A stretch of DNA of 64,000 nucleotides from Escherichia coli (GTDB taxonomy: Bacteria; Pseudomonadota; Gammaproteobacteria; Enterobacterales; Enterobacteriaceae), in the NCBI RefSeq assembly GCF_003334405.1, contig NZ_QOWM01000003.1; one strand, given 5' to 3'. Below, piece after piece: positions 44,601 to 47,600 of the stretch. A program made the position numbers. How positions within the stretch are numbered: the stretch's first letter is position 1; every line of letters starts with the position of its first letter.

Positions 44601-47600
44601 GGGTGCGCCAGCACAATGGGCCGCGATATTTGCCCGTTTTGGCGCGAAACTGGAAAATGTCAGCGTGGGTTGCTGCGGCATGGCAGGGACTTACGGACAT
44701 GAAGCGAAAAACCATGAAAATTCGCTCGGGATCTATGAGTTATCCTGGCATCAGGCTATGCAGCGACTGCCGCGTAACCGCTGTCTGGCGACCGGATATT
44801 CCTGCCGTAGCCAGGTAAAACGGGTTGAAGGCACGGGGGTACGCCATCCTGTGCAGGCTTTACTGGAGATTATTAAATGATATGGAAACGGAAAATCACC
44901 CTGGAAGCACTGAATGCTATGGGTGAAGGAAACATGGTGGGGTTCCTGGATATTCGCTTTGAACATATTGGTGATGACACCCTTGAAGCGACAATGCCAG
45001 TAGACTCGCGGACAAAGCAGCCTTTCGGGTTGCTGCATGGAGGAGCATCCGTGGTACTGGCCGAAAGTATCGGTTCCGTTGCCGGTTATTTATGTACCGA
45101 AGGTGAGCAAAAAGTGGTTGGTCTGGAAATCAATGCTAACCACGTCCGCTCGGCACGAGAAGGGCGGGTGCGCGGCGTATGCAAACCGTTGCATCTCGGT
45201 TCGCGTCACCAGGTCTGGCAGATTGAAATCTTCGATGAGAAAGGGCGTTTGTGCTGTTCGTCACGATTGACGACCGCCATTTTGTGACGTTGTCACCAGA
45301 AAAGTGTGACGCATATTGCTTTTGGTCATTATCTGCACAGTAAACGGTGGTATACTGTGCAGGTCTTGTCTAAAAGCGAGGATGCTATGTCTACTCAACT
45401 TGATCCCACCCAGCTGGCCATTGAATTTTTACGCCGTGACCAGAGCAATCTTTCACCTGCCCAATATCTCAAACGTCTGAAACAACTAGAACTTGAATTT
45501 GCTGACCTGCTTACTCTCTCTTCTGCTGAATTAAAAGAAGAAATCTACTTTGCCTGGCGTCTGGGCGTGCATTGATCCTGACTTAATGCCGCAAGTTCGC
45601 CAAATCGACCTGGATTAACCTCCGTCCAGGTTCGATGACCTTCTTAATACTGCTTATCTACCGCCTGATATTGTTCAAAAATAATACTAATCGCAGTTTG
45701 TGTTAAAACGGCGGGTTAGCTTTATGAGATTATTCTTATCGCCCCTTCAAGAGCTAAGCCACTGAGAGTGCCGGAGATAAGCGCCGGATGGGGTAGAAAC
45801 CCTTAAGCCTGTGTCGCACAGACTTAAGGGTTTTCTTATTTCTGAACGCTGCACTTTTTTACCTATCTCTTAAATAGTCATTTTCAATACAACTTTTTCT
45901 TTTTCATCACAGCCTTAATGCTCCTTAGATAATAACCATTATCTAACAATGAGATACCTAATTCTTAGCGTGCCTGTTAACCCACACATCAGGGTCTATG
46001 CTTATTAAAAGCAGGCAAAAAGCATGTTTTACGGTAAAGCCCCTGCGTTTGCTGGGTTGAACTGATAATCATTATCACTAACATGCTGTTATACGCTGAA
46101 AGCGATGAAGTGAGGTAAATCGATGGACATGCATTCAGGAACCTTTAACCCACAAGATTTCGCCTGGCAAGGCTTAACGCTGACACCCGCAGCGGCGATA
46201 CACATCCGTGAGCTGGTGGCAAAGCAGCCGGGTATGGTCGGCGTGCGCTTAGGCGTGAAGCAAACGGGCTGCGCGGGCTTTGGCTATGTGCTCGACAGTG
46301 TTAGCGAGCCGGACAAAGACGATCTGCTGTTTGAACACGACGGCGCGAAGCTGTTTGTCCCGCTGCAAGCGATGCCGTTTATTGATGGCACGGAAGTCGA
46401 TTTCGTTCGTGAAGGACTTAATCAGATATTCAAATTTCACAACCCTAAAGCCCAGAATGAATGTGGCTGTGGCGAAAGCTTTGGGGTATAGGCGGTACTA
46501 TGTCTCGTAATACTGAAGCAACTGACGATGTCAAAACCTGGACCGGCGGCCCGCTGAATTATAAAGAAGGATTCTTCACCCAGTTAGCCACCGATGAGCT
46601 GGCAAAGGGGATAAACGAAGAGGTGGTGCGCGCAATTTCGGCGAAGCGTAATGAGCCGGAGTGGATGCTGGAGTTTCGTCTAAACGCCTATCGCGCATGG
46701 CTGGAGATGGAAGAACCGCACTGGTTGAAAGCGCACTACGACAAGCTGAATTATCAGGATTACAGCTACTACTCAGCACCATCGTGCGGTAATTGTGACG
46801 ACACTTGCGCGTCTGAACCTGGCGCGGTGCAGCAAACTGGCGCGAACGCCTTTTTAAGTAAAGAGGTGGAGGCGGCGTTTGAGCAGTTGGGCGTTCCCGT
46901 GCGGGAAGGCAAAGAGGTGGCGGTGGATGCCATTTTCGACTCAGTTTCGGTTGCCACTACTTATCGCGAAAAACTGGCGGAGCAGGGAATTATTTTCTGT
47001 TCCTTTGGTGAGGCGATCCACGATCACCCGGAACTGGTGCGTAAATATCTCGGCACCGTGGTGCCGGGGAATGACAACTTCTTTGCCGCGCTTAATGCGG
47101 CGGTAGCCTCTGACGGTACGTTTATTTATGTGCCTAAAGGCGTGCGCTGCCCGATGGAACTTTCCACCTATTTTCGCATTAACGCAGAAAAAACCGGGCA
47201 GTTTGAGCGCACCATTCTGGTGGCCGACGAAGACAGCTACGTCAGCTACATTGAAGGCTGTTCCGCTCCGGTGCGTGACAGCTATCAGTTACACGCGGCA
47301 GTGGTGGAAGTCATCATCCATAAAAACGCCGAGGTGAAATATTCCACGGTACAAAACTGGTTTCCTGGCGATAACAACACCGGCGGTATTCTCAACTTCG
47401 TCACCAAGCGTGCTTTGTGCGAAGGCGAAAACAGCAAAATGTCATGGACGCAATCAGAAACCGGGTCAGCGATTACGTGGAAATATCCCAGCTGCATTTT
47501 GCGCGGCGATAACTCCATTGGTGAGTTTTACTCAGTGGCGCTGACCAGCGGTCATCAGCAAGCGGATACCGGCACCAAGATGATCCACATCGGTAAAAAC

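Follow-up and report, generated by a model that had tools for sequence, protein, structure and literature searches.

The spacer between ydiH and sufA of Escherichia coli lies within a stretch of 64,000 nucleotides from assembly GCF_003334405.1 (contig NZ_QOWM01000003.1), the whole of which is referred to here as the window. The ydiH stop codon ends at position 45575 and the sufA ATG begins at 46123. The sequence, the open reading frames and the RefSeq annotation thus agree with the 547-bp spacer (45576-46122) given in a preliminary description of this DNA. Over 1.2 kb around the spacer the identity with E. coli K-12 MG1655 is 100%, and 5422 of the 5426 complete E. coli genomes contain a matching region. 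Relative to the K-12 record NC_000913.3 the window is reverse-complemented, with window position = 46123 + (1764386 - K-12 position), and in that record ydiH (b1685), the non-coding RNA gene rydB (b4430, 1764713-1764780) and sufA (b1684) follow one another on one strand. The spacer is composed of two independent units, each already described: the gene for the small RNA RydB and the control region of sufA. A strong hairpin lies directly downstream of the body of RydB, and its relationship to rydB is the main subject of this analysis. The coordinates of the features discussed are collected in Table 1.

RydB is encoded within the spacer on the same strand as its neighbours, as the preliminary description had supposed of its location. 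The Rfam model RF00118 gives a full-length match (model positions 1-61 of 61) at 45741-45801, scoring 81.6 bits (E = 5.8e-19) against a gathering score of 50. The RefSeq rydB (NC_000913.3, 68 nt) maps to 45729-45796 (+); compared with the Rfam match and the sequenced 3' end, it is displaced by 12 nt at the 5' side and 5 nt at the 3' side. That 3' end is recorded by Term-seq at 1764708(-), corresponding to window position 45801, the RNA ending in ...GGGGUAGAAACC (Adams et al. 2021, curated tables, supplementary file 1; PMC7815308). The established mature ends of 4.5S RNA and transfer-messenger RNA (tmRNA) were used to check the register of the tables. The tables are subject to a threshold and would not show a precursor that is rapidly processed. 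Apart from 45801 they hold no curated 3' end in the whole spacer, and the ydiH-sufA region is not represented in the TERMITe tables.

The RydB end is a very abundant one. In lysogeny broth (LB) it is represented by 2.17 million reads at an optical density (OD) of 0.4 and 4.14 million at an OD of 2.0, in the range of tmRNA (ssrA; 2.25 and 0.93 million, respectively) and CsrB (csrB; 1.2 and 3.9 million). The corresponding counts are 7.5 and 8.6 million for 4.5S RNA (ffs), 0.39 and 0.46 million for 6S RNA (ssrS), and 0.05 million under both conditions for ryhB. RydB is said to have run at 60 nt on the Northern blots of Wassarman et al. in 2001, and to our knowledge it has been without a clear function since that year. 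The sole function cited in the literature found is a lower expression of rpoS on overproduction of RydB. Annotations of E. coli genomes made by the NCBI Prokaryotic Genome Annotation Pipeline omit rydB, which only the curated K-12 record includes. A correction of that annotation is called for, the mature RNA being the 61 nt matched by Rfam rather than the RefSeq span. Two short open reading frames over rydB were rejected, one of 13 codons (ATG 45724 to TGA 45765) and one of 35 codons on the reverse strand (45747-45854). Both frames are broken by 1-nt indels between species, which are found at TTATCGCCCC versus TTAT-GCCCC and also in variable loops.

The hairpin overlaps RydB by 5 nt and begins 222 nt past the ydiH stop; no feature is annotated on it in NC_000913.3. 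Its arms, of 17 nt each and 94% complementary, enclose a 3-nt loop and constitute the only inverted repeat of at least 10 nt in the spacer. The preliminary description reported a 14-bp hairpin with a U-tract at these coordinates; the coordinates and the U-tract hold good, but the stem is longer, with 11 bp, a C.A mismatch and a further 5 bp. The stem is followed by TCTTATTTCT, giving 9 T within 12 bases counted from its last GGG, while on the reverse strand only 3 T follow the stem. The RNA fold has a predicted energy of -22 kcal/mol (z = -6.55), and none of 200 shuffled sequences was as stable. The hairpin had been proposed as a candidate for RydB itself. This identification fails because the RF00118 match lies immediately upstream and no 3' end is listed near 45840, the Term-seq end at 45801 falling just five bases into the 5' arm.

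The association of the hairpin with rydB was followed through 80 sufA loci, one per species, using a covariance model built from an alignment of rydB. RNA body and hairpin are both present at 22 of these loci, in Escherichia, Citrobacter, Salmonella arizonae, Leclercia, Silvania and Pseudenterobacter. The aligned set comprises 23 chromosomal loci with rydB next to suf, in every one of which the hairpin comes directly after the body. At the other 58 sufA loci rydB was not found within 1.5 kb and the hairpin is absent. The more modest claim, that the hairpin is part of the rydB locus, is upheld, and with it the earlier view that this is not ydiH's own terminator, since the hairpin is kept with rydB and is missing where rydB is not nearby.

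The pattern of substitution in the 23 loci bears on the nature of the element. Thirteen of the 18 hairpin pairs are compensatory, the observed score is reached by none of 500 shuffles, and 96% of the hairpin cells are paired compared with 28-54% in slid controls. The sequence of the hairpin is freely replaced between genera with retention of pairing, whilst the RydB body is nearly invariant. Pairs of the G.U type possible only on the + strand amount to 47 cells, as against 15 for the reverse case, and in about 19 of the 23 loci the stem is succeeded by a good T tract. Covariation, the strand bias of G.U pairs and the T tract therefore indicate an RNA hairpin acting on the + strand transcript, for which an intrinsic terminator is the simplest interpretation. 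The closing helix of RydB (45741-45745/45790-45794) covaries as well, with three of its five pairs changed on both sides; GCUCC/GGAGY and AUCCC/GGGAU are examples of its variants at chromosomal loci. A riboswitch-like pairing of CCCCUUCAAG with the 3' arm of the hairpin was considered and set aside, since the apparent match seen in E. coli is lost in Citrobacter and in the phage copies described below.

Upstream of the body, the motif TG-n-GAnnAT is invariant in Escherichia, Citrobacter, Klebsiella, Pantoea, Rahnella and two groups of phage flanks (A and B), and is in every case separated by 6-7 nt from the first G of the body. It fits an extended -10 promoter from which transcription would start at about 45741. 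The RefSeq 5' end at 45729 was provisionally set aside, because the -10 that it implies (45717-45722) is not conserved whereas TGaGAnnAT is. Other promoter readings made by eye (-10 TATGAG, GAGATT or TATTCT) do not fit every copy, and the same is true of sigma-E, -32, -28 and -54 patterns and of a CRP half-site. A second conserved box, GCAGTTTGTGTTAAA, recurs as GCAAnnATTGTTAAA in the phage copies. Its distance of about 21 nt from the downstream -10-like hexamer exceeds that of a standard -35, and it may be a promoter-upstream element. On the opposite strand there is a promoter-like arrangement, TTAACA-17-TATTTT (45678-45706, -), in which the -35 is the conserved GTGTTAA box upstream of rydB read on the other strand; judged by this likeness, it is a possible divergent antisense promoter directed toward ydiH.

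RydB bodies also occur away from suf: in Klebsiella downstream of patD, on a Pantoea megaplasmid, and on a Rahnella megaplasmid inside a prophage (L085:1503-1563), where the copy is flanked by genes for a phage DNA methyltransferase and a holin. All three have TGaGAnnAT 6-7 nt upstream of the body. The body is followed by a canonical terminator in Klebsiella and Pantoea, and in Rahnella by a hairpin and T run recognised by eye only. Because box and body recur at unrelated loci, the rydB unit is independent of its neighbours. E. coli has no paralogues or phage copies of rydB; in 5422 of 5426 genomes the gene is found at one place per genome, at suf.

The model that we favour, with a probability of about 0.75 when taken together with the Fur control of sufA described below, is that rydB consists of a promoter, a 55-nt structured body and a terminator hairpin, and that its transcript is trimmed to RydB. 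The hairpin would thus be the intrinsic terminator of the rydB unit, a trailer which is absent from the mature RNA. RNA polymerase would initiate from the extended -10 promoter TGaGATTAT at about 45741, transcribe the 55-nt body followed by the 17-bp hairpin and U tract, and terminate in the U tract at about 45838-45845. The primary transcript of some 100 nt would then be shortened through a nuclease pathway, the hairpin being removed and the 3' end trimmed to 45801, seven bases past the closing helix, so as to produce the abundant 61-nt RydB. The terminator would at the same time prevent read-through from the strongly expressed rydB unit into the suf promoter, which Fur and OxyR control; such shielding is suggested because the unit is so active and lies next to what we take to be the region of the OxyR site. 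Two published assignments are compatible with termination at the hairpin: RepRanger lists rydB with a Rho-independent terminator, and the rydB annotation of Salmonella spans 105 nt, which leaves room for one. If so, a second correction to the annotation follows, in which the strong hairpin is the trailer and terminator of rydB and probably protects the suf promoter from the highly active unit that precedes it.

Several observations weigh against this model. No curated 3' end follows the hairpin (45830-45850) in the thresholded tables of Adams et al. 2021, for which a short-lived precursor is assumed to be the explanation. The RydB body alone is not unusually stable (z = -0.01), and its inner helices are without any variation in the first 23 sequences. 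The 5' end is placed at 45729 by RefSeq as against 45741 by Rfam and promoter conservation. Three to four loci of the Citrobacter type keep a perfect stem with a poor U tract, and in view of these the hairpin may have a role beyond, or other than, termination. Finally, a simple terminator scan did not call the hairpin, which was attributed to the internal C.A mismatch.

The poor U tracts bear on the possibility that the hairpin serves chiefly in processing or stability, for instance as a substrate of RNase III that would define the 3' end of RydB, with termination taking place elsewhere or in a Rho-dependent manner. It would account for a 3' end situated within the 5' arm at a distance of 12 stem positions from the loop. 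At three loci (L023, L024 and L015) a perfect stem of 16-19 bp lacks a U tract and is followed by a pyrimidine-rich stretch, and in Klebsiella a GC-rich hairpin without a U tract precedes a separate canonical terminator by about 60 nt, both as might be expected of such an element. A good U tract nonetheless directly follows the stem at about 19 of the 23 loci, and in Pantoea, Rahnella and most phage copies there is no adjacent hairpin for processing, the body being followed by a spacer and then a canonical terminator. Since, in addition, our literature search found no RNase III data on rydB, a role principally in processing seems unlikely. We are slightly more sceptical still of the proposal that the hairpin forms part of a functional RydB of about 100-105 nt, of the type that acts with Hfq, of which the 61-nt species would be a breakdown product. 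The length annotated in Salmonella, the RepRanger assignment and the conservation of the hairpin together with rydB would all suit an RNA of this kind. However, the only curated 3' end, with its millions of reads, is 45801 and none lies past the hairpin; the 61-nt RF00118 model ends at this same base; and the free replacement of the hairpin sequence between genera is at odds with a nearly invariant body if both belong to one functional molecule. The mature end carries neither the terminator hairpin nor the U tail of an Hfq-type small RNA, and in Salmonella the enrichment of RydB by Hfq co-immunoprecipitation was 2.5-fold compared with 49-fold for RydC.

Explanations which dissociate the hairpin from rydB fare less well. 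Its location downstream of ydiH on the same strand, and just before the presumed OxyR site region, would be appropriate for a distal terminator of the ydiH mRNA or for a general insulator of suf. Yet in Citrobacter the hairpin follows rydB even though the upstream sequence cannot be aligned to the end of ydiH from Escherichia, it is absent from the 58 sufA loci without rydB within 1.5 kb, and the published Term-seq tables contain no ydiH-related 3' end, all of which makes this origin improbable. The hairpin is also a near-perfect DNA palindrome beside a dense regulatory region, and could in principle act at the DNA level as a site of protein binding or recombination. This is the least credible of the alternatives, as covariation preserves the pairing rather than the sequence, and G.U-compatible changes are three times commoner on the + strand, which is the signature of an RNA helix. 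No rival fits as well as the terminator model.

Relatives of rydB are found in phages. A scan of IMG/VR with the body sequence identified 43 viral contigs, a number which half-site patterns raise to about 53 (L087-L139), and the phage copies tested score 51-81 bits with RF00118, whose gathering score is 50. In lambda-like prophages these copies lie on the strand of their neighbours, between the gene for the antiterminator Q and those for holin, endolysin and spanin. An endolysin gene is present 355-1325 nt downstream on that strand in 39 of the 43 contigs and a holin gene downstream in 33, usually at 127-300 nt, whilst a Q-like antiterminator gene belonging to one of three PHROG families (phrog_79, phrog_753 or phrog_127) lies upstream in 21. 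A hairpin and T run occur 40-75 nt after the body in 37 of 42 phage copies. In the divergent copies the closing helix covaries strongly, CCCC/GGGG being changed to CGUUCAA/UUGAACG, CCUUU/AAAGG or others and an extra hairpin is optional; AGAGCU and GAGUGCCGGAGAUAAGCGCCGG are fixed. The Q-holin spacer of one contig, L091, contains three promoter-terminator modules in series, of which the second is a match to STnc100 and the third is the rydB-like unit. No rydB match was found among GenBank phage genomes.

Some further features of these contigs may be recorded. Matches to STnc100 (RF02076) occur near a rydB-like unit in the Q-to-holin region at L091:4591-4770, L136:1378-1566, L137:2853-3054, L095:4653-4835 and L132:8937-9117. 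In another group of contigs tRNA genes lie just upstream of the rydB-like element (L121:4415-4567, L128:2399-2471; two tRNA genes precede). This group is without the TGaGAnnAT box, and here the element may be cut from a longer late transcript. Contig L134 carries two diverged rydB-like copies in tandem (9520-9587 and 9699-9766), about 180 nt apart.

The rydB gene of E. coli does not share the location of the phage copies between Q and the lysis genes. Its neighbours are ydiH and sufA, and no PHROG match was obtained for YdiH. Because the family sits in the Q-lysis region while the E. coli copy is found only at suf, the latter looks like a kept orphan copy of a phage-borne RNA module rather than a regulator native to enterobacteria, the direction of transfer being one that we infer. 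On this view the hairpin at 45797-45845 would correspond to the terminator which follows the body in the phage copies. Taken further, RydB would be a structured and probably protein-binding RNA whose primary role lies in phage late-gene biology or in phage-host interplay. This proposal is prompted by the phage context, the tmRNA-level abundance, the processed 3' end without a terminator and the weak association with Hfq, and we consider the chances of the whole reading, from orphan copy to phage role, to be even. A literature search found no paper reporting a phage association of rydB, although papers naming rydB alongside prophages were not all covered.

The gene in the window is the same gene as rydB (RF00118; b4430) of K-12, with the same sequence, strand and neighbours, and comparisons with other systems can therefore be made for the known RNA. 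RydB is like 4.5S RNA, tmRNA, RNase P RNA and 6S RNA in having a very abundant 3' end which is not preceded by a U tract. It further shares with the small stable RNAs its near-invariance across genera and, in Salmonella, repression by guanosine tetraphosphate (ppGpp) along with SsrA and SsrS. Unlike them, rydB is missing from many suf loci of the Enterobacteriaceae, and the processing of its RNA is presumed. By analogy, then, RydB appears closer to the small stable RNAs than to a typical base-pairing small RNA with respect to abundance, processed end and ppGpp repression. We know of no partner protein or housekeeping function for it.

A second parallel is offered by the lambda 6S RNA (PR'-tR') and by StxS of the Shiga toxin (Stx) phages, which are short transcripts of the lambdoid late region. 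The phage rydB copies have in common with these the position between Q and the lysis genes, the strand and the following terminator, but are without sequence similarity to lambda. Furthermore, the rydB-like unit of L091 is the third module of its spacer, so that such a unit need not start at PR' itself, and the rydB gene of E. coli has neither Q nor lysis genes nearby. The location between Q and lysis genes, together with the processed and stable form of the RNA, points to phage lysis timing, lysogeny and protein partners as the areas in which a function may be sought. The rydB gene and the Fur operator of suf are already known for E. coli K-12; only the link to phages and the processed form and high abundance of mature RydB may interest specialists.

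The other unit of the spacer is the control region of sufA. A near-consensus Fur operator, GATAATCATTATC, had been noticed at 46064-46076 upstream of sufA; its coordinates were read from the sequence and its match to the consensus was scored. The exact sequence occurs once in the window, and with up to two mismatches there are 10 matches where 1.36 would be expected. The 19-bp Fur consensus GATAATGATAATCATTATC is matched at 16 of 19 positions at 46064-46082 (reverse strand) and at 15 of 19 at 46058-46076, overlapping registers which are the best in the window. When the 300 bp preceding sufA were aligned as a footprint for 81 Enterobacteriaceae species, almost no variation was seen at 46063-46084, or in TTGAAC (46057-46062) and TAACAT (46079-46084), the putative -35 and -10 hexamers of the sufA promoter. 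Since the near-invariant box sits between these hexamers, the operator would fill the promoter spacer. Transcription of sufA reportedly starts at about 46091, 32 nt before the ATG (EcoCyc; Lee et al. 2004).

Published work has shown that Fur-Fe2+ represses suf by excluding RNA polymerase and IscR from the sufA promoter, which is activated by OxyR, bent into place by IHF, and by apo-IscR (PMC7229158; PMC12533949). The expectation of iron-responsive control through Fur is therefore upheld, both by this published repression and by the top-scoring box, conserved throughout the family, over the putative sufA core promoter. Under iron-replete conditions Fur-Fe2+ bound at 46058-46082 would shut out RNA polymerase and the activator IscR. 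The box is the known iron operator of suf: its position, sequence and overlap with the core promoter all match the published sufABCDSE operator, and nothing differs. Further strong matches to the Fur consensus (14-15 of 19 positions) occur elsewhere in the window, at 20919-20943, 55765-55783 and 60557-60575.

Additional conserved elements lie upstream of the operator. The sequence AAAGCCCCTGCGTTTGCTGGGTTGA, whose flanks are conserved in the 81 species, resembles a type-2 site for IscR and, going by the suf literature, is presumably the IscR site. The block at 45860-45905 lies at the position reported for the distal OxyR site of the suf promoter (Lee et al. 2004; see also PMC7229158) and is a candidate for that site, and the block at 45936-45951 likewise is a candidate for the IHF site. 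A third block, which precedes the reported sufA start by about 80-100 nt, contains the palindrome TGCTTATTAAAAGCA, which by eye may be NsrR-like. A second Fur box was considered at 45929-45944 (GATAATAACCATTATC) and rejected as a conserved operator, since only its right half is conserved in the 81 species; the left half is specific to E. coli, and the palindrome is probably part of the IHF region. That left half is also the -10 of a promoter-like sequence flagged by scanning, ATCACA-16-GATAAT (45906-45933, +), some 160 nt upstream of the Fur-controlled promoter. The site is listed as a 'constitutive promoter' of sufABCDSE in a study of RpoD by genomic systematic evolution of ligands by exponential enrichment (SELEX; PMC3946193).

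Table 1. Features of the ydiH-sufA spacer, in window coordinates.
Feature	Coordinates	Strand	Basis or remark
Conserved box GCAGTTTGTGTTAAA upstream of rydB	45694-45708	+	23 chromosomal rydB loci
Putative extended -10 of rydB, TGaGATTAT	45725-45733	+	Conservation
Mature RydB RNA, 61 nt	45741-45801	+	Rfam and Term-seq 3' end
Terminator-like hairpin with U-rich tail	45797-45845	+	Arms 45797-45813/45817-45833, loop TCG, tail 45834-45845
Conserved block	45860-45905	Strand-neutral	Phylogenetic footprint, 81 species
Conserved block CATTATCTAACAATGA	45936-45951	Strand-neutral	Includes right half of second Fur-like palindrome (45929-45944)
Conserved block with palindrome TGCTTATTAAAAGCA	45989-46013	Strand-neutral	Near-invariant in 81 species
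IscR type-2-like site AAAGCCCCTGCGTTTGCTGGGTTGA, overlapping putative -35	46036-46062	+	Flanks conserved (81 species); resemblance only
Putative -35 hexamer of sufA promoter, TTGAAC	46057-46062	+	Conservation
Fur operator, core GATAATCATTATC at 46064-46076	46058-46082		Fills gap between putative sufA -35 and -10
Putative -10 hexamer of sufA promoter, TAACAT	46079-46084	+	Conservation
Shine-Dalgarno sequence of sufA, GAGG	46112-46115	+	Before ATG at 46123

A few minor observations concern the remainder of the spacer and the window. An imperfect hairpin, AATCGACCTGGA...TCCAGGTTCGAT (45604-45640, +), is situated 30 nt past the ydiH stop and is found in Escherichia only. It may be a weak terminator of ydiH itself; the tables of Adams et al. 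2021 list no 3' end for it. In E. coli strain L9 (NZ_CP142044.1) the ydiH-sufA region is split by insertion of the IS30-like element ISApl1. Other Rfam matches in the window are RprA at 40030-40137 (-), a Phe leader at 11233-11357 (+), STnc540 at 15198-15356 (+) and, at 63793-63993, a tRNA with an overlapping match to HPnc0260.

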